This document shows, piece after piece, positions 5,196 through 17,593 of a DNA stretch of 17,593 nucleotides. Made by a program: the position numbers and the translations under genes. The stretch is from UHGV virus genome UHGV-1834291. One strand, 5' to 3'. How positions within the stretch are numbered: position 1 is the first letter of the stretch; each line of letters starts with the position of its first letter. The notes under the pieces were generated by a model, which worked only from the letters and a program-made list of their open reading frames with translations, was not told where the DNA came from and did no database searches. Source of the stretch: a virus.

Positions 5196-6572
5196 TCATA
5201 CGTCAGCCCCTTGTGCATATCGTCTGCCACGTGCAGCAGGTGCATTTGATGTTGTGCAAATCTGTCTGGCTTCATCCTGGTCACATGCAACAAAGTGTCC
5301 GTTGCAGAACCGCTGGTAAACCGTACCAAGCGAGCCAAAACGGTTTTTCGTTACGATGATTTCAGCAAATGGCGCGGCGCTACTGTTCTCGTCATATACC
5401 GCTTCCCGATAGAGCATGATGATTGAGTCTGCGTCCTGTTCAATGCTTCCTGAATCACGCAAATCTGCGTTTGTCGGGCGTTTGTTTGGTCGCTTCTCAA
5501 CATCGCGCGAAAGCTGACTCAGGGAGATAACGGGCGTTTTCAGGTCTTTCGCCATCGCCTTCAGGCTTCCGGAGATGTGAGCAATTGCGAGGTCGTTGCG
5601 GTCTGCTTTCGGCTTCTCAATCAGGCCAAGATAATCCACCATGATGAGTGAGAGGTTTGGATTTTCCTGTTTGTGCCGTTCTGCGATTGAGCGTATTTCT
5701 TCGACCGATAACCGCGAGGCATCGACTACCCATACATCCAAATCTGCAAGCTGACTCATGCCGTTAGCAACGCGCGCCCAGCCTTCGTCATCCATCGCTG
5801 CAGGATTTCGCAGCACACTAACCGACATCCTCCCGGCGTTGGCAATGCTTCGCTCTGCAATCTGCAATGCGCTCATTTCCATTGAGAAAATCAATACCCC
5901 GCGCCGGACGTCAGAACCAGGAATAACGCGGCTTGCAACGCCTTCGGCAATCTTCAGCGCCAGTTCGGTTTTCCCCATACCAGGACGAGCAGCGATTATC
6001 ACCAGGTCTTCCGCGTTCATCCCTCCGGTGATGGCATCAAGTTCTTCGATTCCGGTCTTCAGGGTATCGGACTCTTCTCCGTTCCTCAGACGCCTGTCAA
6101 GCGTGTCAGTGTAGTCAGTAATGATTTCCCCTAACCGTACAGGTTTAACCTCGTCACGGGGCTTTCTGATGGCTGAAAGACGCTTTACAAGCTCATCCAT
6201 CGCCTGACTCGATGCGTCGATGGTTCCGCTCTGAATTGGTTCACGCATTTCATCCATGATTTCCAGCACCAGACGGCGGTGATAGTTATCCGCGACCATT
6301 CCGGCATATCCCTTCAGGTTTGCGGCACTAGGGCAGTTTTTGCTGGTCATCAGGATTGACGTGAAATGCTCCTCTCCGCACGCCTCGGCAACCATCAGCG
6401 CGTCGATTAGGTTTCTGTTTCGCGCCTGCTTGCGGATAACCTCGAAGGCTTTCCGGTAGAGCGGAATTGAAAACGCTTCCGGCTCAAGCGTTGCCAGAAC
6501 GTCACTGGCAGTTGGTGTTAATCCACCAATCAGCAGGCCACCGATAACGCTCGCTTCGATATCCTGTCTCAT
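5196..6572 (-). CDS. Replicative DNA helicase, DnaB family (P22 gene 12-like)
   Basis: 458 aa; Walker [13 protein letters not shown]; DnaB-like N-terminal domain; start ATG overlaps O-like stop (ATGA). Confidence 0.9.
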
Positions 6573-7390
6573 GCAATCCCCCTGTCTGCAAACTTCCCTT
6601 CCCGTACTCCCGTTAACGAATCTTCCCTCAACAGGTAATCAAAATCAGCTGTCCAGCCCGTGTCGTTGTCTCCGAAGTAAAACGGCTTGGCCTGATGCAC
6701 AAACGCCCTGACATACGCTCTGAAACCGTCCACGTTTGGCGTTTTCAGTTGCGGGATGATTTTCTTCAGGCGGCGTTTGCGTTTCTCGTTGACCGCAACA
6801 GCGTGTGGCAGTCTGTCACCTACTTCGGTGTTGTAGGCGTTCAGGAAGGATTCGTAGTCGATTCGTTCTGCCTTGCGACGTTCAGGTTTAACCTGCCCAT
6901 CGCCGCCCCCGTTAGGGGGTAAGGGGGTATTTGTATTTATTGTCTTTTGTATATTGTCTTTTGTGTTTAGCTGACTTGGCTTATACCCATTAGCCGACTT
7001 GGCTAATGTTTTATTAGCTGTTTTAGCTAATGTTAAGCTGTCCTGGCTAATCCACTGAGAAACCACCTTGTTCACTCCGATTTTCACGCCATCAGCAATG
7101 AGGAATTTACGCTCAATAAGCTGGCGCTTGGCAGCGCAAACATGAGTGTGATGAATACCTGTCATGGCTGCTATCTGCGTGTTTGTGAGTCGATCCATCG
7201 GCTTATTGAATCCGTATGTCTTGCGCATGATAGCGAGCATCACCTTCAACTGCCGGACGGTTAAATCAGCCATCAGCAGACTGTCGGTAATCTCGTTAGC
7301 AACGCGCATGAAACCATCTTCGGTATCTGCCACGCGATGCTCCACGACCTCCAGTTGAGGCCTGTAATCAGCTAACTTAACGACGCCCAT
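6569..7390 (-). CDS. Replication initiation protein, lambda O-like N-terminal domain
   Basis: 273 aa; N-terminal segment [25 protein letters not shown] resembles the lambda O DNA-binding domain; iterons lie inside the gene as in lambda; RBS AGGAG upstream. Confidence 0.85.
6911..7051. repeat. Candidate replication origin: four ~18-bp iterons plus adjacent AT-rich tract inside the O-like gene
   Basis: Direct repeats tagctgacttggcttata (6968-6985), tagccgacttggctaatg (6991-7008), tagctgttttagctaatg (7015-7032), taagctgtcctggctaat (7034-7051); AT-rich tract 6927-6967; G-rich gggggtaagggggta at 6914-6929. Confidence 0.7.
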
Positions 7391-8260: not shown

Positions 8261-8977
8261 ATGGAAAATAAAAAATCACTGACGACAGAACAGCTCGAAG
8301 ACGCTAAGCGGCTTAAGGCTTTGTATGAGTCAAAAAAGAAAGAATTGGGAATAACCCAATACTCAATCGCTGATGAACTGGGTATCACCCAAGGAGCGGT
8401 AGGGCATTATCTTAATGGCAGAAACGCGCTAAACGTTGAGGTCGCATCTGGTTTTGCACGTTTGTTGCAAGTCTCAATTGCTGATTTTAGCCAGTCAATT
8501 GCTGCCAAGGTTGCAGAACAGGCAGAAAGCCTTAAGAGCGATGCCAACGTAAGGTATGCAGGGGAATACAGAGCAGGAAAGAGGTATCCGGTGTTAAGCA
8601 GTATCCAGGCTGGCTCGTGGTGTGAAGCATGCGAACCATACACCATTAAAGACATAGATGTTTGGCTTGAGTCTGACGCGCATATTCAAGGTAATGCGTT
8701 CTGGCTTAAAGTGGAAGGTGATTCAATGACGGCACCGGTTGGGTTAAGCATTCCAGAGGGAACATTCGTTCTTTTCGATACCGGAAGGGAGGCGATCAAC
8801 GGCAGCTTGGTCATAGCAAAACTTTCTGACTCTAACGAAGCAACATTCAAGAAGCTGATAATCGACGGCGGAAATAAATACCTCAAGGGACTTAATCCTG
8901 CATGGCCTCTCGTGCCAATCAATGGAAACTGCAAGATTATAGGCGTTGCAATTGAGACAAAACTAAGGCTGGTTTGA
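8261..8977 (+). CDS. cI: CI-type prophage repressor (HTH_XRE N-domain, S24 LexA-like autopeptidase C-domain)
   Basis: 238 aa; HTH ITQYSIADELGITQGAVGHYLNG; C-domain with catalytic Ser (GDSM) and Lys (FKKL) and an Ala-Gly candidate cleavage site; divergent from cro across the operator region. Confidence 0.9.
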   Translation: MENKKSLTTEQLEDAKRLKALYESKKKELGITQYSIADELGITQGAVGHYLNGRNALNVEVASGFARLLQVSIADFSQSIAAKVAEQAESLKSDANVRYAGEYRAGKRYPVLSSIQAGSWCEACEPYTIKDIDVWLESDAHIQGNAFWLKVEGDSMTAPVGLSIPEGTFVLFDTGREAINGSLVIAKLSDSNEATFKKLIIDGGNKYLKGLNPAWPLVPINGNCKIIGVAIETKLRLV

Positions 8978-9730: not shown

Positions 9731-10003
9731 ATGACAGTAGTCATTACATATCTGGCTGACGATAACGCCAGAAATCGCCGCAGAGCACGCAGACAGGCTC
9801 AACGTGAACAGGCAATGCAAGAGCAGCGACTGGCGCGAAAAATTGCGCTAAAGCTCTCTGGTTGCGTCAGAGCAGATAAAGCAGCATCACTCGGAAGCCT
9901 TCGCTGCAAGAAGGCAGATGAATGCAATGGAAGTATTTGCCTGCCAAACGTAGCTATTTACGCGGCAGGCTACCGGAAATCAAAACAACTGACAGCGAGG
10001 TAA
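9731..10003 (+). CDS. N: N-type antitermination protein (arginine-rich motif; P22 gp24-like C-terminus)
   Basis: 90 aa; N-terminal Arg-rich motif DNARNRRRARRQAQREQ; C-terminal AAGYRKSKQLTAR resembles the P22 gene 24 C-terminus as recalled; first gene after PL/nutL; RBS GGAGG. Confidence 0.8.
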   Translation: MTVVITYLADDNARNRRRARRQAQREQAMQEQRLARKIALKLSGCVRADKAASLGSLRCKKADECNGSICLPNVAIYAAGYRKSKQLTAR

Positions 10004-10006
10004 GTG

Positions 10007-10231
10007 ATGAATCAGACATACATTCCATCATGCTTGAGAAATCTGCCAAAGCAGAAAGCAAAGCCCCGCAAGCAAGCCATAAAGGACGCTAAGGCAGATG
10101 TTATTGATCAAGCAATACAATTGCTCAGGGAGGAGTTAAGAAGTGGCAAGCTCGAAGGAATGATGATGTCCTATCAGCGCGGATATCTATCGGCGATTAG
10201 TAAGTTGGAAGTATTGAAGAGTGAATTATGA
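10007..10231 (+). CDS. Hypothetical protein, 74 aa, basic N-terminus
   Basis: ATG 10007 (GTG 10004 possible) 3 nt after N stop, RBS GAGG; MNQTYIPSCLRNLPKQKAKPRKQAIKDAKADVIDQAIQLLREELRSGK...; no recognised motif. Confidence 0.45.
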   Translation: MNQTYIPSCLRNLPKQKAKPRKQAIKDAKADVIDQAIQLLREELRSGKLEGMMMSYQRGYLSAISKLEVLKSEL

Positions 10232-10288
10232 ACTATCTGGAATTTCCGGATGGTTCATTGTTTTGGCAGCAAGCCACAGAGGTGATAT

Positions 10289-10375
10289 ATGGAAGAAGAA
10301 TTTGAAGAGTTCGAAGAGCATCCGCAGGATGAGATGGAACAATACCAGGACTATCCGTATGACTACGACTATTGA
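10289..10375 (+). CDS. Candidate 28-aa highly acidic/aromatic peptide overlapping the ral start
   Basis: ATG 10289, MEEEFEEFEEHPQDEMEQYQDYPYDYDY, stop 10373-10375; 17-nt overlap with ral in another frame; could be non-coding. Confidence 0.3.
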   Translation: MEEEFEEFEEHPQDEMEQYQDYPYDYDY

Positions 10376-10559
10376 TAAGAATCAATGGTGTGGACAATTC
10401 AAGCGATGCAATGGATGCAAGCTGCAATCGGAATGCATGGTTAAGCCTGAAGAAATGTTTCCTGTAATGGAAGATGGGAAATATGTCGATAAATGGGCAA
10501 TACGAACGACGGCAATGATTGCCAGAGAACTTGGTAAACTGAACAACAAGGCTGCCTGA
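10359..10559 (+). CDS. ral: Ral restriction-alleviation protein
   Basis: Trimmed to ATG 10359: MTTTIDKNQWCGQFKRCNGCKLQSECMVKPEEMFPVMEDGKYVDKWAIRTTAMIARELGKLNNKAA (66 aa), near-identical to lambda Ral from memory. Confidence 0.9.
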   Translation: MTTTIDKNQWCGQFKRCNGCKLQSECMVKPEEMFPVMEDGKYVDKWAIRTTAMIARELGKLNNKAA

Positions 10560-10582
10560 TGGTGGCCTTTATTTTCTTATTT
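10548..10582 (+). terminator. Candidate intrinsic terminator immediately after ral
   Basis: aaggctgcc / ggtggcctt 9-bp stem (two G-U) with tgat loop containing the ral stop codon, followed by tattttcttattt. Confidence 0.5.
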
Positions 10583-10595
10583 GAGAGGAATTAAT

Positions 10596-11219
10596 ATGTC
10601 ATCAATCCGCTTAACTACGAGAATGAAAGAGGAAATCGCTCGTAACGCTTTAATTAAGTCTGGGGTTTTCACTGAGCTTGAAGAAGTAACAAAGTTAAAG
10701 AACCAGCTTGCACTTGACGCCAGAGTTATTGCGTTTGGCGGTAAAAAGAAAACTGAGGAAGTGGATCAGTTATCATCCAAGTTGGTAGCTATAAGTGAAG
10801 AACTTGGAAAGATGGGATGTTCATTTTACTCATACGATTTTCGTTCTACTTCAATTTATCTGACTGTATCTGGCAGAAGGGTTGGATGGCATTCATATGG
10901 AAAAGACGGCAACGGCGAAGATATATTGCTCCCTACTCCGACCAGAGATAAATGCATGTTTGACGCAGAACACGAAATAACAAAAAGGTTTGATGAAATC
11001 TGCGCATTGCAACAAAAACTTGAAGTCAAGAAAAAGGATATCGAATCAAATGTATGGGCTGCTTTGAACTCAGTCACAACAGTTAAGCGACTCATTGAAG
11101 TTTGGCCTGAAAGCAAAGAATTGCTACCAAAAGAAGCAGATAAAGCAAGTACAGCACTTCCTGCTTTACGGGTAGAGGATTTGAATAAGATGATTGGACT
11201 TCCTTCCGAGGCCGCATAG
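10596..11219 (+). CDS. Hypothetical soluble protein, 207 aa; unknown function
   Basis: ATG 10596 with RBS GAGAGGA; MSSIRLTTRMKEEIARNALIKSGVFTELEEVTKLKNQLALD...; no TM segments or recognised catalytic motif; bracketed by terminators; occupies the slot where lambda/P22 carry sieB. Confidence 0.6.
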   Translation: MSSIRLTTRMKEEIARNALIKSGVFTELEEVTKLKNQLALDARVIAFGGKKKTEEVDQLSSKLVAISEELGKMGCSFYSYDFRSTSIYLTVSGRRVGWHSYGKDGNGEDILLPTPTRDKCMFDAEHEITKRFDEICALQQKLEVKKKDIESNVWAALNSVTTVKRLIEVWPESKELLPKEADKASTALPALRVEDLNKMIGLPSEAA

Positions 11220-11235
11220 TCGGCCTTTATTTTTG
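11209..11235 (+). terminator. Intrinsic terminator after the 207-aa gene
   Basis: aggccg / cggcct 6-bp stem with loop catagt (contains the stop codon TAG), followed by tttatttttgg. Confidence 0.7.
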
Positions 11236-11263
11236 GCATAAACAACAGAATAAACACTGCACT

Positions 11264-11291
11264 GTGTATTCATTCCAACGAGTGAATACAC
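11264..11291. repeat. Perfect 9-bp inverted repeat with 10-bp spacer in the inter-terminator region
   Basis: gtgtattca (11264-11272) ... tgaatacac (11283-11291); arms contain GTATTC/GAATAC, the same hexamers as the operator half-sites but in everted order. Confidence 0.5.
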
Positions 11292-11351
11292 GGAGCAATG
11301 TCGCTCGTAACTAAACAGGAGCCGACTTGTTCTGATTATTGGAAATCTTCT

Positions 11352-11380
11352 TTGCCCTCCAGTGTGAGGGCAATTTTTTT
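11352..11380 (+). terminator. Strong intrinsic terminator 12 nt upstream of the 322-aa gene start
   Basis: Perfect 8-bp stem ttgccctc / gagggcaa, 6-nt loop, then T7 (11374-11380); RBS GGAGG and ATG 11393 follow directly. Confidence 0.8.
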
Positions 11381-11392
11381 GACGGAGGATAT

Positions 11393-12361
11393 ATGAGTGA
11401 AGTAACAGATTTAGTTGTTATTGAAAAAGCAAATGCAATGACTGTATTTCAGTCTGCAGACCAGATTGAAGAAATCCTTCAAAAGGTTGAACGTGAAGTT
11501 ATGTCCTTTGTGCCTGATATCACAACGGCAAAGGGCAGAAAGGAGATCGCTTCTCTGGCGTATAAAGTTGCGCAGACGAAAACATATCTCGATGGTCTTG
11601 GCAAAGACCTTGTTGCTGAACTGAAGGAAATTCCAAAGCTAATTGATGCCAACCGCAAGACAGTGCGTGATCGCCTTGATGAGCTGAAAGCCAAGGCGCG
11701 CCAGCCTCTTACTGATTATGAGGAGGAACAGGCACGGATTAAAGCCGAAGAAGAAGCTAAGGCAGCAGCTGAAGCTCTCGCAAAGCAAATTGAGTCTGAC
11801 CATGAAATAGCGATTTTGATGGATCGCGAATTTGACCGCCAAAGAGAAGAGGCAAGACTCAAAGCGGAGCGGGAAAAGCGAGAGCATGAAGAACGCTTAA
11901 AAAGAGAAGCTGAAGAGAGAGCCAGAGCAGAAGCCGAAGCAAAGGCAAAAGCCGAAATTGAAGCAGCAGCAAGGCGAGAAGCAGAAGCTAAGGCCGCAGC
12001 GGAACGTGCAGAGCGTGAACGCATTGAAGCCGAGCAACGAGCACAGCGCGAAGCAAAAGAGGCAGCAGAACGAGCTGAAAGAGAAAAGCAGGCGGCAATT
12101 GAAGCAGAACGCCGAAAAGCACAGGAGGAGGCTGAACGAATCCGGCGCGAGGCTGAAGCAAAAGAGCAAGCCAGAATAGCAGAAGAAAAAAGAATCAAGG
12201 AAGAAGAAGAGCGTAGAGCAAAGGATAAAGCTCACCGGAAAGAAGTAAATAACAAAATACTTGCTGACCTTATCAAGGTTGGCGCATCAGAAGATGTTGC
12301 TAAAAATATCATAACAGCTATCGTAAAAGGCGAAGTATTCGCAACAAAAATAACCTACTAA
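11393..12361 (+). CDS. Hypothetical protein, 322 aa, with ~160-aa E/R/K/A-rich predicted single alpha-helix / coiled-coil domain
   Basis: ATG 11393 after RBS GGAGG; globular N-terminal ~120 aa (MSEVTDLVVIEKANAMTVFQSADQIEE...), then repeats of EAEAKAKAEIEAAARREAEAKAAAERAERE..., short C-terminal domain ...IITAIVKGEVFATKITY. Confidence 0.7.
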   Translation: MSEVTDLVVIEKANAMTVFQSADQIEEILQKVEREVMSFVPDITTAKGRKEIASLAYKVAQTKTYLDGLGKDLVAELKEIPKLIDANRKTVRDRLDELKAKARQPLTDYEEEQARIKAEEEAKAAAEALAKQIESDHEIAILMDREFDRQREEARLKAEREKREHEERLKREAEERARAEAEAKAKAEIEAAARREAEAKAAAERAERERIEAEQRAQREAKEAAERAEREKQAAIEAERRKAQEEAERIRREAEAKEQARIAEEKRIKEEEERRAKDKAHRKEVNNKILADLIKVGASEDVAKNIITAIVKGEVFATKITY

Positions 12362-12729: not shown

Positions 12730-12900
12730 ATGTCACTTGCAACCACAGTGAAGGAGAGCAAGTTACAGAGACGCATGTACACGCAGAAAGCTCTCTGGTA
12801 TCGCCATAATGGTGACCGCGAAGGAATGCGGGTATGCCTTAATTTGTCCCGAGTTGAAGTATTAAATCAGCGTTATTTCCTTGGGCCGTGTCCATTCTGA
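12730..12900 (+). CDS. Small ORF (56 aa) immediately upstream of erf (P22 arf position)
   Basis: ATG 12730 with strong RBS AAGGAGA 5 nt upstream; MSLATTVKESKLQRRMYTQKALWYRHNGDREGMRVCLNLSRVEVLNQRYFLGPCPF; ends 10 nt before erf ATG. Confidence 0.35.
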   Translation: MSLATTVKESKLQRRMYTQKALWYRHNGDREGMRVCLNLSRVEVLNQRYFLGPCPF

Positions 12901-12910
12901 GAACAATCAT

Positions 12911-13516
12911 ATGAGCAAAGAATTTTACGCAAGACTGGCAGCTATTCAGGAGAATCTGAACGCGCCAAAGAATCAGTACAACTCATTCGGCAAATATAAA
13001 TACAGAAGCTGCGAAGACATTCTTGAAGGCGTTAAGCCGTTACTGAATGGCCTGTTTTTATCAATCAGCGATGAAGTTGTGTTGATTGGTGATCGGTATT
13101 ACGTGAAAGCCACAGCAACTATTACCGATGGCGAAAACAGTCATACAGCAATCGCTCTTGCACGAGAGGAAGAAAGCAAGAAAGGAATGGATTCTGCACA
13201 AGTTACGGGAGCTACAAGCTCTTATGCACGCAAGTATTGCCTCAATGGTTTGTTCGGCATTGATGATGCGAAAGATGCAGATACAGACGAGCATAAACAT
13301 CAGCAGAACGCAGCAGCAAAGCAATCAAAACCATCACCTACACCTGAACAGGTTCTAAAAGCATTCACTGACGCAGCAATGCAGAAAAACACCGTAGAAG
13401 AGCTTAAACAGGCGTTCGCCAAAGCGTGGAAGATGCTCGAAGGCACACCGGAGCAGCACAAAGCGCAGGACGTTTACAACATCAGACGAGATGAATTAGA
13501 AGGAGCGGCTGCTTAA
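12911..13516 (+). CDS. erf: Erf single-strand annealing recombinase (P22 Erf-like)
   Basis: Trimmed to ATG 12911: MSKEFYARLAAIQENLNAPKNQYNSFGKYKYRSCEDILEGVKPLLNGLFLSISDEVVLIGDRYYVKATATITDGENSH..., matching the P22 Erf N-terminal domain from memory; C-terminal domain divergent. Confidence 0.9.
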   Translation: MSKEFYARLAAIQENLNAPKNQYNSFGKYKYRSCEDILEGVKPLLNGLFLSISDEVVLIGDRYYVKATATITDGENSHTAIALAREEESKKGMDSAQVTGATSSYARKYCLNGLFGIDDAKDADTDEHKHQQNAAAKQSKPSPTPEQVLKAFTDAAMQKNTVEELKQAFAKAWKMLEGTPEQHKAQDVYNIRRDELEGAAA

Positions 13517-13899
13517 TGGCACATTCGATTACTGTAAGACTAAACAAGCCCGTAAGAGAGTTTCAGGCCGGGGAAAATATCGGATTCAACATCCGTGCTG
13601 GCGTTCAGTATTACGATCGCCAGACAAAAAAGAAAGAATGGACAAACTACAGCGCCGTTGTATTTGCCAAGCCGGGAGCGCAAGCGGATTACTACCGTAG
13701 TGTTCTTGTTGAAGGTGGCATTGTGGAAATTACCGGAGAAAACATCAGGGTTGATGTTTATCAGGGGCAAAATGGTCAATCAATCACTCTTGAATTACTG
13801 AATGCAAAGATTGGATTTGCAGCTTCAGGAAATGGCCCGCAGCAGCAAAGTAGTAACCAGCAGAACACTCCTGTATACGACGATTCCATCCCATTCTGA
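13516..13899 (+). CDS. SSB-like single-stranded DNA-binding protein (short form with acidic C-terminal tip)
   Basis: 127 aa; OB-fold-like core, Gln/Ser-rich linker, C-terminal DDSIPF resembling the SSB tail DDDIPF; ATG overlaps erf stop (TAATG). Confidence 0.7.
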   Translation: MAHSITVRLNKPVREFQAGENIGFNIRAGVQYYDRQTKKKEWTNYSAVVFAKPGAQADYYRSVLVEGGIVEITGENIRVDVYQGQNGQSITLELLNAKIGFAASGNGPQQQSSNQQNTPVYDDSIPF

Positions 13900-13922: not shown

Positions 13923-14219
13923 ATGCCAGCGCCTCTGTATGGTGCGGATGACCCGCGCCGCTGTTCCGGCAATTCCGTATCGGAGGTGCTGGAAAGTATC
14001 AAGAATAATCTCGGCGCGTTTCTTGCTCTGCCACCAGAAACAAAAGCAGAACGGAAGTACCGACGCGATATACAACTCGCAGAAAAACAGGAAAAAGACC
14101 GAATAAACGAAACATCAATCCGACCATTCCGCAAAGCCACATATACCCACTTCCCTGAATATATCGACCCGCGCCTGCGTAATTACCGCTCACGCTATGG
14201 CGCTATCAGTAATGACTGA
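13923..14219 (+). CDS. Hypothetical protein, 98 aa
   Basis: ATG 13923, RBS AAGGG; [52 protein letters not shown]...; no recognised motif. Confidence 0.45.
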
Positions 14220-14694: not shown

Positions 14695-15471
14695 ATGAAC
14701 AAGATTGACTATCAGGCACTGCGTGCCAAGGCAGAAAAAGCAACGTGTGGTGAGTGGTCGCTCGAATATGGAGATGGCCGATTTGATGGTGATGATGCAC
14801 TAATTCATCGTGAAGTTGCTGGATATATTCCCATTTGCAGAATTGAAGGAGCGCATCCAGAAAGCGGTTTCGATGAAGATTTCCAAATGGAACAGCAGGC
14901 CAATGCTGAATTCATCGCCGCAGCCAATCCGGCTACCGTCTTGGCGCTGCTGGATGAGCTGGAAAGAAAACAGCAATACATCAAACGCCGCGACCAGGAG
15001 AACGAGGATATTGCGCTAACAGTAGGGAAACTGCGTGTTGAGCTTGAAACAGCAAAATCAAAACTCAACGAGCAGCGTGAATATTACGAGGGAGTAATCG
15101 TGGATGTGAGTAAGCGCATAGCAGAACTGGAAGCCGAACCTGTAAGCCAGGCTTACAAGTTGAACGCGCTGGCTGGCAACTCTCCGGTAACTCCAGATGG
15201 TTGGATAAGCTGTAGTGAGCGAATGCCTGTAATTGGCGAGCTAAATTGGAGAACTAGTTTTCCTTTACTGGTTACGTGTGAGATCGGCGTTATACCTGCT
15301 TATTACGGCTTTGTGAGAGTTAATGGGAATAAGCATTATGGTTTTATGGAGAGTCTTAAATATGGAGATGGTAGCGGCAACCATCCTCAAACTAATGAAT
15401 ATGACCTGATTAGCAATGTCACACACTGGATGCCTCTACCAGAACCGCCTCAGGAGGTTAACCGTGGCTAA
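14695..15471 (+). CDS. Phage protein with coiled-coil N-region and C-terminal DUF551-like domain (Ead/Ea22-like architecture)
   Basis: 258 aa; central heptad-rich segment; C-terminal DGWISCSERMPV...THWMPLPEPP resembles the DUF551 hallmark as I recall it; ATG 14695 one nt after previous stop. Confidence 0.65.
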   Translation: MNKIDYQALRAKAEKATCGEWSLEYGDGRFDGDDALIHREVAGYIPICRIEGAHPESGFDEDFQMEQQANAEFIAAANPATVLALLDELERKQQYIKRRDQENEDIALTVGKLRVELETAKSKLNEQREYYEGVIVDVSKRIAELEAEPVSQAYKLNALAGNSPVTPDGWISCSERMPVIGELNWRTSFPLLVTCEIGVIPAYYGFVRVNGNKHYGFMESLKYGDGSGNHPQTNEYDLISNVTHWMPLPEPPQEVNRG

Positions 15472-16242: not shown

Positions 16243-16434
16243 ATGACCGATACCAGCCTGATTCCTGAGAAAGAAGTGATGAACAAGCTCGGTGTTTCAT
16301 CACGTCAGACAATCTGGAACTATACCAAACGGCACGGATTTCCGAAGCCAGTCAGAACCCACCCCAAATCATACCTTCGTGAAGCTGTTGAGGGGTGGAT
16401 TCTTAACGGTGGCGTTAATCAGAAATGCTCCTGA
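16243..16434 (+). CDS. xis: Excisionase-like small DNA-binding protein (Xis)
   Basis: 63 aa, basic, adjacent to integrase; RBS GGAGA 6 nt upstream; 3' end overlaps the convergent int 3' end by 20 bp. Confidence 0.65.
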   Translation: MTDTSLIPEKEVMNKLGVSSRQTIWNYTKRHGFPKPVRTHPKSYLREAVEGWILNGGVNQKCS

Positions 16435-17593
16435 TGTGCCAGAACAATTTATCAGCGTGAAGCTCATACGCTTTGCGCTGAGCCTCTATCCAGTCGTGTT
16501 TATTGTATACGGACATTATCCCGCCAAGTTCATGACCGAGCATTCGCTCAGTAACATGAGGCTCGACATTCATCTCGGACAGACGTGTAACAAGCGTTCT
16601 TCTGAAATCATGTGTTCGCCAGTAACCTAGATCCATCCCTCCCCTTATTCTATTTACGAATCGGTTGGCTGCAGCGATGCTGATCGGTTTGTTTATGTCT
16701 TCTCCAGGGAAAAGAACATCATTGTACGTTGTCATGGCCTTTTCGAGAAAAGGCTTAATTTGTTCGAAGATTGGACGACGGATAACATTACCCATCTTGC
16801 TATGCTCTTTCGGTACGGTCCATACGTTGTCCAGCAGGTCAAATTCTGTCTTTGTTGCCAGCCTAAGCTCTGAGAGCCTCGCCCCCCACAGCATAAGCAT
16901 CTGATGAAGGAGCTTATTTGACGTAGACGCACGGCTTCTTTCAATAGCAAGCCAAATCTTAGCCAGTTCGTGATACGACAGTACCCGATCCCCTACCTCA
17001 GCGCGGGAGCCGAAGTCCCTTGGCTGGATGCTCATAATTGCGCAACTATCTATCAACTGACGCCGCATGCACCAACTAATTGCTGATCTTAGTTGACTTA
17101 GCACCTGCCTTGCTCGGCGTGGATTATCTTTTTCTTCTTCGGTAAGCAGGTCAACCCATTGCTTAACCGTGATAGAAGATGCCGGACGATTAGGGAAGGC
17201 GTCATGCATGCGCTTCATAACCGTTGATCGGTAAAGTGCCTGGGTCTTTTCTCTGAGAGTTGTAGAGACGTAGTTGTCGAACCAGTAGTCGAGACACTGG
17301 GCGACCGTCATGGAGTTCTCCACCTTCTCTTCAAAATAAGTGCGTGGATCCGTTCCTGAGAAATAGAGCTTTCGCAAGTCAGCAGTGATCTGTCTGGCAT
17401 CCTTCAAAGACAGGGATGGGTATCGACCAAGCCCAAGTCGATTAGGCTTGCCATGCCAGCGATAGCGGTACTGGAACTGGATGACCCCCTTCGGTGAAAT
17501 TCGTACGCTGAGGCCATCAGCATCAGCCACTTCTTGTGGGCCCGAATATGGTTTACCATAAATAGTACGCAGTTTTGTGTCGCTTATAGCCAT
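16415..17593 (-). CDS. int: Tyrosine site-specific integrase (P4-type architecture)
   Basis: 392 aa; catalytic-domain motifs GARLSELRLATKTEFD (Arg box), THDFRRT (H-x-x-R) and LGHELGGIMSVYNKHDW (catalytic Tyr); start codon is the last three bases of the window. Confidence 0.95.
   Translation of the reverse strand: MAISDTKLRTIYGKPYSGPQEVADADGLSVRISPKGVIQFQYRYRWHGKPNRLGLGRYPSLSLKDARQITADLRKLYFSGTDPRTYFEEKVENSMTVAQCLDYWFDNYVSTTLREKTQALYRSTVMKRMHDAFPNRPASSITVKQWVDLLTEEEKDNPRRARQVLSQLRSAISWCMRRQLIDSCAIMSIQPRDFGSRAEVGDRVLSYHELAKIWLAIERSRASTSNKLLHQMLMLWGARLSELRLATKTEFDLLDNVWTVPKEHSKMGNVIRRPIFEQIKPFLEKAMTTYNDVLFPGEDINKPISIAAANRFVNRIRGGMDLGYWRTHDFRRTLVTRLSEMNVEPHVTERMLGHELGGIMSVYNKHDWIEAQRKAYELHADKLFWHIRSISD

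Follow-up and report, generated by a model that had tools for sequence, protein, structure and literature searches.

We analysed a 17,593-nucleotide (nt) stretch of the virus genome UHGV-1834291 (hereafter the window, i.e., the whole stretch at its full length), which represents the early region of a P22/lambda-like prophage with its leftward (pL) operon on the plus strand. Our focus is an open reading frame (ORF) of this operon that encodes a protein of 207 amino acids (aa) and follows ral, the restriction alleviation gene. It is essentially certain that the product is a full-length member of the Nmad5 family and that the gene has the cassette anatomy set out below. The features that matter for both statements are these:

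10548–10579, plus strand: upstream terminator-like hairpin with a T-rich tail (stem 10548–10556 / 10561–10569)
10564–10575, plus strand: left copy of the 12-nt direct repeat GGCCTTTATTTT (hairpin 3' arm and T tract)
10576–10595, plus strand: cassette leader, with the homology start and a Shine-Dalgarno-like GAGAGGA
10596–11219, plus strand: Nmad5-family gene, 207 aa, 23.2 kDa, isoelectric point (pI) 6.8, soluble
11208–11234, plus strand: downstream terminator-like hairpin followed by TATTTTT (stem 11208–11214 / 11221–11227)
11222–11233, plus strand: right copy of the 12-nt direct repeat GGCCTTTATTTT
11235–11392, plus strand: conserved intergenic boundary sequence, equivalent to Sf6 bsq4

The ORF translates without internal stops. 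Its Shine-Dalgarno-like GAGAGGA (10583–10589) lies six bases ahead of the ATG at 10596, and this start is supported by the fact that homologues begin at the same MSS(I/V)RLT. In Pfam it belongs to PF18757 (Nmad5, nucleotide modification associated domain 5), with E = 6.9e-71 and 239 bits against a cut-off of 27, and the match runs end to end (protein residues 4–203 on model positions 1–206 of 206). It also matches phrog_1965 (E = 7.8e-83), and PHROG 1965 is described as unknown function. The RefSeq name “Nmad5 family putative nucleotide modification protein” occurs in 211 of 5,426 complete E. coli genomes (~4%), and near-identical genes (96–98% identity of nucleotides and of protein) are present in phages HK542, HK244, mEp235, APC_JM3.2 and many phages converting to Shiga toxin (Stx1/Stx2a) production. 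An earlier note on this DNA, written from the sequence alone, saw no recognisable motif and spoke of an unknown family; neither statement survives this full-length match to a curated, named family. As the gene is already catalogued (Pfam family, PHROG, RefSeq product name, near-identical copies in sequenced phages), it is ordinary as a discovery. A profile search at E <= 1e-3 gathered 2,317 cluster representatives of the family, and nearly all of the best 150 of these 2,317 are stand-alone proteins of 190–220 aa that match end to end. In alignments of Nmad5 homologues the conserved positions are R5-L6, N17-A18, G48-G49 and G93 in the N-terminal half, and T162, L166, W170-P171-E172, E175-L176, P178, L196-N197 and G201-L202-P203 in the C-terminal half.

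The same note had called the protein soluble, which holds: hydropathy over 19-residue stretches peaks at 0.61, and no segment is hydrophobic. The protein is neutral, its acidic and basic residues numbering 32 each at pI 6.8 (family median 7.6), and therefore not a DNA mimic; an Ocr/ArdA/Gam-like mimic was rejected on charge, and Pfam, PDB sequence and fold comparisons gave no match to one. Searches for a defence or exclusion identity were empty as well, with 0 families in PADLOC-DB v2 at E up to 10, no SieB-family match in Pfam even at E up to 10, and no matches to the protein in NCBIfam or PDB sequences. An Rfam scan of the window and its intergenic regions returned nothing.

Comparison of 85 close loci bears out that the ORF is conserved as coding, the 207-codon frame being intact in 82 of them, 204 codons long in two and cut by a premature stop in one. 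That stop, at codon 55, is confined to one IMG/VR contig (L041, around 6001–6621). Polymorphic sites are distributed 43/36/75 over the three codon positions of the plus frame, and the ratio of nonsynonymous to synonymous substitution rates (dN/dS) is ~0.29 over 65 alleles. By these sequence comparisons the gene is under purifying selection and selectively maintained. An antisense ORF of 133 aa (10856–11257, minus strand) was rejected, as the polymorphism tracks the plus frame. In 48 records of Stx2a-converting phages the gene is split after codon 35 by an insertion sequence (IS) element of the IS3 family, and it must therefore be dispensable. The insertion is 1.3 kb long, with a 4-bp target duplication and two frames, OrfA (108 aa) and OrfB (296 aa); in the Stx2a phage Stx2_716 (L183) it occupies 1196–2504, at the site equivalent to window 10699–10702. 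We take the element to be IS629 or something much like it. A separate case is SH2026Stx1, where transposase genes lie directly downstream of an intact Nmad5 gene.

An AlphaFold2 model built on 20 homologues (mean predicted local distance difference test, pLDDT, of 85) consists of three long helices (residues 8–72), a beta-hairpin (86–100) and a 32-residue helix (127–158), followed by short helices that bear the signature T-x-K-R-L-I-E-V-W-P-E-S-K-E-L-L-P. At the C-terminus a disordered linker (184–191) precedes a conserved tail, LPAL-V-DLNKMIGLP. The polar residues conserved over 24 diverse members (R5, N17, R43, T162, E172, E175 and N197) contain no recognisable catalytic set, and comparison of the predicted helical bundle with known folds returned no match to any enzyme. 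The fold, as modelled, is thus not enzyme-like. The remote-homology and structure-based searches that the earlier note had proposed led to PF18757 and to no enzyme fold.

The limits of the cassette emerge from comparison of the window with the related loci. In 72 of the 85 loci homology to the window starts at 10576, i.e., 20 nt ahead of the ATG; in about 10 of the others it starts at 10261–10279, where the ral module begins, and in loci carrying ral it covers 10262–10575. The first nine positions of the leader (10576–10584, CTTATTTGA) correspond to the last codons and the stop of N, the antiterminator gene, in phages where the Nmad5 gene directly follows N. This is the arrangement in most close relatives, in which the gene lies 12 nt downstream of N and the joint falls within the last N codons; in HK542, for example, N ends inside the shared 20-nt leader. 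Several different N types are linked to the gene among the related loci. Since in most relatives the gene comes directly after N, with the end of N within the shared 20 nt, the upstream hairpin is part of the ral module. Within the window the 12-mer GGCCTTTATTTT has just two copies, at 10564 and 11222 (0.14 expected), so the insert is bracketed by a direct repeat of hairpin 3' arm and T tract. HK544 provides the corresponding empty site: its ral hairpin is joined straight to “...GGCCTTCATTTTTGGCATAAAC”, the window sequence after the second hairpin, and it retains one hybrid copy of GGCCTTTATTTT. In Sf6 and HF4s homology to the window resumes exactly at 11209, the start of the downstream hairpin, which there follows unrelated cargo, namely Sf6 gene 34 (140 aa) and a 149-aa membrane protein of HF4s. 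Both hairpins are thus shared module-boundary or backbone sequences and not parts of the cassette. The HF4s gene (L002, 10894–11343), with an annotated transmembrane helix and without a Pfam family, replaces the 75-aa ORF, ral and Nmad5 together; it may be exclusion-type cargo.

The order in lambda is N, sieB (on the opposite strand), orf28, ral, ea10, cIII; many Nmad5 phages show N, Nmad5, ea10, cIII instead, and one Stx2a phage encodes an Ea10 with 99% identity to that of lambda. The Nmad5 gene therefore alternates with the sieB/ral block. In the window its place after ral is that of ea10 in lambda and of gene 34 in Sf6, and across the 85 loci the downstream neighbours are highly diverse (ea10, cIII, an IS element and others). 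Its G+C content is 40.5%, against 47% for the window. Taken together, sequence comparison makes the gene a swappable, promoter-less single-gene cassette in the variable N-to-cIII interval. The earlier note's view of the gene as accessory cargo in this interval has thus held up (empty in HK544, gene 34 in Sf6, the 149-aa protein in HF4s). Its more specific placement in a sieB-equivalent position holds only loosely: the gene does alternate with the sieB/ral block, but in the window it follows ral, whereas sieB of lambda precedes ral, coming after N and reading from the other strand.

That the gene is bracketed by two sites of hairpin and T-run, with the ral stop in one loop and its own stop in the other, was likewise borne out by our scan. 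The upstream hairpin has a 9-bp stem and the loop TGAT, in which the ral stop TGA (10557–10559) lies, and is followed by TATTTTCTTA; it folds at -14.6 kcal/mol (z-score = -3.2), and 2 of 200 shuffled sequences do as well. The downstream hairpin (7-bp stem, loop CATAGT, containing the Nmad5 stop TAG at 11217–11219) is weaker, at -11.0 kcal/mol (z = -1.4, 21 of 200 shuffles as good). It is intact in ~63 of 83 close loci, whereas in ~20 a single change without compensation weakens it; being weakened in about a quarter of the copies, it is at best a leaky terminator that is not tightly selected. A consensus scan found 8 terminator-like sites in the 3.2-kb region, with 3.5 +/- 1.9 expected. From the downstream hairpin onwards, window 11209–11498 is 98% identical to Sf6 13011–13300, where the Sf6 record annotates bsq4 and tL2A. 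A hairpin within the boundary sequence (11352–11373, -13.2 kcal/mol, z = -3.4) has an Sf6 counterpart annotated as homologous to lambda tL2a, and the homology of many loci to the window ends at 11377/11379. The boundary sequence also contains an inverted repeat (11262–11291, GTGTATTCA...TGAATACAC) with no Rfam match, and in 13 loci the homology stops at 11249 and picks up again at 11259 or 11293, so that this small piece is itself mosaic.

The layout had been likened to a classic moron, and one mark of a moron, insertion between sequences that are adjacent in a relative, is present (the empty site of HK544 and the flanking GGCCTTTATTTT). A hairpin with a T-run, as expected of a terminator, does follow the gene, yet it is shared with other cargo, has a modest z of -1.4 and is weakened in about a quarter of the copies. 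What is missing is the promoter: the consensus scan found no sigma-70-like site near 10540–10595, an atypical promoter inside the upstream gene still being possible, and because the cassette begins 20 nt before the ATG it has no room for a promoter of its own. A promoter-like match inside the gene (10898–10927) was set aside, the region having 2 matches where 4.4 are expected. As no promoter-like site was found and the cassette offers no room for one, the gene is probably expressed within the pL operon, and the comparison with a classic moron does not carry over. In HK542 the scan detected nothing terminator-like from pL up to the tL2a-like hairpin that follows the Nmad5 gene; from this layout we infer that the gene is co-transcribed there with N, before antitermination is needed.

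Beyond the lambdoid phages the family is widespread. A tblastn search located it in 377 phage records, virulent phages included, among phages of Enterobacterales, Pseudomonas, Vibrio, Bordetella and cyanobacteria. In prophages of Serratia, Providencia, Pantoea and other Enterobacterales a 43–55% identical homologue is the first or second gene after a cI-type repressor. N4-like phages carry it between ThyX and a PD-(D/E)XK nuclease and primase, near DNA polymerase I (the N4-like matches listed are Ithacavirus, FSL SP-058-like, KpCHEMY26 and Vibrio phages; a link to the replication genes of coliphage N4 was dropped, N4 being absent among the matches listed of the homologue search). In the Yuavirus phages PAE1 and M6 it adjoins a thymidylate-synthase-like gene and DNA polymerase A, and in PAE1 a pyridoxal phosphate (PLP) enzyme and a gene similar to radical S-adenosylmethionine (SAM) enzymes are also close. 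The distant contexts were drawn from IMG/VR and exact-protein look-ups, a scan of species-representative genomes having given only 4 loci. The commonest arrangement among the diverse IMG/VR loci (34 loci, of a total given as 75 or 80; 9 of 27 non-redundant groups) is a 300-aa unknown protein, a DUF2800 PD-(D/E)XK nuclease, an Enc34-type (DUF2815) single-strand-binding protein (SSB), Nmad5 and DNA polymerase A, with VRR-NUC further downstream. The replication module of phage Enc34 contains the same kinds of genes, i.e., DNA primase, DNA polymerase, VRR-NUC, helicase, the ORF6 SSB and hypotheticals (PMC5686142).

We also took a census of neighbours, with one locus for each of the 27 groups and four genes on each side (212 proteins). 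Replication and recombination proteins stand out: DUF2800/PD-(D/E)XK nucleases (9), Enc34-type SSB (8) and DNA polymerase A (7) lead, followed by S24 repressors and helicase C-terminal domains (3 each). Single occurrences were an SNF2-related domain, the primase-type domains VapE-like, DnaG zinc ribbon, NrS-1 polymerase HBD, Pox_D5 and DUF5906, and RecT, YqaJ, AAA_24 (Sak4-type), DUF669, T7 gp5.9, P22 gp17 and N. None of the 212 neighbours was a base-modifying enzyme or carried a domain assigned to a known defence system, and no base-modifying enzyme lies near the gene in the annotated cI-to-int region of the window or in the related lambdoid pL operons examined. Judged by gene context, the dominant association of Nmad5 is with DNA replication and recombination, and that with nucleotide modification appears only in Yuavirus-type phages. 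One of the Providencia prophages with an Nmad5 gene (L090/L091) also carries a CAP12-PCTIR TIR-domain gene (13130–13891) just downstream of its phage DNA polymerase A, a candidate prophage-borne defence gene.

For experiments on an Nmad5 protein we found a single paper, on Dhillonvirus phages (PMC11846954). There, a single Lys-to-Glu change in Nmad5 (K216E or K296E, depending on the N-terminus) allows escape from the Tmn defence system; deletion of the gene gives a viable phage with unchanged Tmn sensitivity, and the wild-type gene is toxic, could not be cloned in E. coli and does not protect against Tmn (PMC11846954). Dhillonvirus Nmad5 (SECphi18 gp24; PhiSMS22/PhiSMA8) is of the same family as the window protein. 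The two align from end to end with 24% identity, and both have the RLT N-terminus, the GG hairpin, T-x-K-K-L-I-x-x-W-P-E and a C-terminal L-N-x-x-x-G-I-P. The Dhillonvirus protein differs in being at least 254 aa long, with a ~45-residue insertion in the beta region, and SECphi18 gp24 is a lone gene on the opposite strand among the head-assembly genes of a virulent phage. At position 216 the SECphi18 homologue has a lysine that aligns with R165 of the window protein in the motif T-x-K-[KR]-L-I-x-x-W-P-E, a mapping that assumes shared numbering between PhiSMA8 and SECphi18. Other known phage triggers of defence proved to be different proteins: Ksap1, with which SECphi18 triggers KpAvs2, has 74 aa and is encoded elsewhere in the genome; RAZR is triggered by an Erf-like ring protein and by portal proteins; and the gop-beta-cII trigger orf184, from the “ral accessory region”, has a model of ~108 residues. 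Nmad5 was ruled out in each case.

Judging from its gene neighbourhood, timing and fold, we favour, with as much doubt as conviction, an early, non-catalytic accessory protein that binds a conserved partner in phage DNA replication or recombination. Under this proposal the cassette would be inserted, or lost, via recombination between short shared boundary sequences, here the repeated GGCCTTTATTTT of the two hairpins. The gene would be transcribed only within the pL operon, in the window by N-antiterminated read-through and in the commoner N-Nmad5 arrangement together with N, ahead of the first terminator. Its product would be a soluble 23-kDa helical bundle that includes a small beta-hairpin and, beyond a flexible linker, ends in the conserved peptide LPAL.V.DLNKMIGLP, and it would act by binding rather than catalysis. 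The contacted partner could be DNA, an SSB or a protein of the replisome or of repair, and the Nmad5 protein would be helpful to the phage yet dispensable. Several points weigh against this. The assignment to replication or recombination is guilt by association. In its C-terminal region the model has low confidence (pLDDT < 60). A polymerase-specific partner cannot be general because lambdoid phages rely on the polymerase of their host. Small anti-defence genes, such as T7 gp5.9, lambda gam and P22 abc2, are found inside replication or recombination modules too, and since such genes sit there, the neighbourhood cannot part a replication helper from an inhibitor of a host nuclease or defence. 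Moreover, Dhillonvirus Nmad5 is alone among head genes, and the only phenotype on record ties the family to Tmn (PMC11846954).

The main rival, which we consider appreciably less probable, is an anti-defence or host-takeover factor, an early protein that would bind and neutralise, or help to evade, a conserved host immune or DNA-repair component and, in lambdoid phages, would share the counter-defence hotspot of ral. The gene is promoter-proximal in early operons, adjoins ral, shares an operon with abc2 and occupies a highly variable slot; it is dispensable and toxic when cloned, and its predicted non-enzymatic binder fold would suit an inhibitor. Known inhibitors directed at one defence system tend to evolve fast and to have a narrow distribution, but Nmad5 is a very broad family of uniform length with strongly conserved motifs and conserved synteny between SSB and DNA polymerase A, and the protein is not an acidic DNA mimic. 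A systematic screen ranked the ral region as a top-scoring “accessory region”, but none of its 200 accessory genes carries the Nmad5 motif (bioRxiv 10.1101/2023.04.06.535777). The Tmn data cut both ways: the K-to-E change, at a lysine that aligns (if the numbering holds) with R165 in the conserved motif, gives escape and deletion does not, yet the wild-type protein gives no protection and its loss leaves sensitivity unchanged (PMC11846954). The earlier note's candidate for a defence gene has, for its part, no PADLOC match and belongs to a family that occurs in virulent phages and inside replication modules. We regard it as quite improbable that the gene is a prophage-expressed moron that gives the lysogen defence or superinfection exclusion as a functional replacement of sieB. 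It does occupy the interval where lambda and P22 keep sieB, has terminator-like hairpins on both flanks and a lower G+C than the window, and its occurrence in ~4% of E. coli genomes is expected of cargo; against this stand the lack of a promoter-like site in the scan with only 20 nt of cassette before the ATG, the hairpins being shared backbone, the absence of PADLOC and SieB-family matches and, unlike SieB, of a membrane segment, and the commonness of the family in strictly virulent phages and within replication modules.

A component of a DNA base-modification pathway, e.g., a subunit without catalytic activity that would direct modifying enzymes to DNA as it replicates, is what the family name would suggest, as the family was named for its association with nucleotide-modification genes. 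That association is one of gene context and does not define membership in the Pfam model. M6/SN1-like phages list Nmad5 inside a thymidine hypermodification cassette (PMC9476957), and the PAE1 neighbours (thymidylate-synthase-like, PLP-enzyme and radical-SAM-like genes) and the ThyX gene that adjoins N4-like Nmad5 point the same way. However, no hypermodification enzyme lies near the gene in the annotated part of the window, in lambdoid pL operons or among the 212 census neighbours, and the predicted fold is not enzyme-like. Because the modification genes of Yuavirus are embedded in a replication module, the link between Nmad5 and modification may be secondary, and we think this role unlikely, though somewhat less so than the exclusion moron. 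Least probable of all is a transcription partner of N, as an antitermination cofactor or modulator. In most close relatives only 12 nt separate the gene from N upstream of it, and the joint falls in the last N codons; this and the linkage to several different N types would fit such a partner, but homologues occur in prophages that lack an N gene and have only Q-type antiterminators, and in virulent phages with their own transcription strategies; two genes separate N from the Nmad5 gene in the window, and the conserved distant neighbours are replication proteins, not transcription factors.

Going beyond the replication or recombination accessory that we favour, one might venture that Nmad5 is a widespread non-enzymatic phage effector, not a nucleotide-modification protein, whose C-terminal peptide docks onto a universally conserved bacterial component of DNA metabolism or immunity. 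We hold this to be possible yet doubtful. If true, such docking would shield phage DNA during replication or else turn off an immune sensor, the lambdoid Nmad5 gene would be an immediate-early gene co-transcribed with N as a functional alternative to the sieB/ral cargo of lambda, and the Tmn-escape Lys-to-Glu change in the T-x-K-K-L motif would mark a surface between defence systems and Nmad5. The family name itself is probably misleading: it points to base modification, whereas the neighbourhoods examined indicate replication and recombination modules and early expression close to a promoter. This matters for a family that comprises over 2,000 sequence clusters and occurs in phages of many hosts, temperate as well as virulent, and for which function has only been inferred. 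HK542 and mEp235 would be convenient for its study, as they are easily engineered phages with a clean, dispensable single-gene cassette.

Closest to the window gene are those of HK542 (gp33), mEp235, HK244, APC_JM3.2 and the Stx1/Stx2a phages, with the same 207 aa, cassette and left joint in the early-left N-to-cIII interval; most of these copies differ in standing directly after N instead of ral. The Enc34-type, N4-like and Yuavirus proteins agree in family, size and motifs at ~30–35% identity, but these phages have their own polymerase and some hypermodify thymidine, whereas the window prophage uses host replication proteins with O/P-type initiators and Erf/Abc2-type recombination functions. 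Lambda sieB, orf28, ral and ea10, Sf6 gene 34 and the HF4s 149-aa gene share with Nmad5 the variable pL interval and an accessory, exchangeable nature, and have the same boundary sequence and tL2a-like terminator, without sequence or fold kinship to it; SieB is located in the membrane, and the lambda record places its gene between N and ral on the opposite strand, unlike the soluble Nmad5, which in the window is encoded on the pL strand after ral. With T7 gp5.9, lambda Gam and P22 Abc2, small accessory proteins whose action is to bind host proteins, the resemblance is of lifestyle only (early, dispensable, non-enzymatic, among replication or recombination genes, sometimes toxic): there is no homology, and Nmad5 is neutral, larger and far more widely conserved.

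The remaining genes of the annotated region are as follows; the operon of the Nmad5 gene in the window thus also holds Erf, an SSB-like ORF and Abc2.

8261–8977: cI-type repressor
9731–10003, plus strand: antiterminator N of the early-left (pL) operon (Pfam PF25694, N_peptide)
10004–10231: 75-aa ORF
10359–10559, plus strand: ral (restriction alleviation), 66 aa (PF11058, E = 1e-47)
11393–12361, plus strand: 322-aa charged coiled-coil gene, homologue of Sf6 gene 33
12881–13516: erf
13516–13899: 127-aa ORF
13923–14219: abc2
14695–15471: ead/Ea22-like gene
16415–17593, minus strand: integrase

The start of ral was read from the sequence and from an identical Ral sequence in a published supplement. 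The 75-aa ORF between N and ral has no Pfam family, and only few related loci have such an ORF. At its end, just before the left joint of the ral module (10262), lies the strongest hairpin of the region (10228–10258, 14-bp stem, -20.3 kcal/mol, z = -6.0, 0 of 200 shuffles as good), followed by TGTTTTGG; it may be another module-boundary or terminator element. The 127-aa ORF between erf and abc2 has no Pfam match, and a shorter ORF at the same position is labelled “ssb protein” in the HF4s record. The 322-aa protein, also without a Pfam family, combines a conserved N-terminal domain with a long, highly charged coiled coil rich in E, K, R and A, and the HF4s record names its homologue “phi80 Agt-like, Gam antitoxin”. 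Its homologues lie 1–4 genes downstream of distant (~33% identical) Nmad5 genes in 7 IMG/VR loci, and are also found without Nmad5 in HK544, Sf6 and HF4s.

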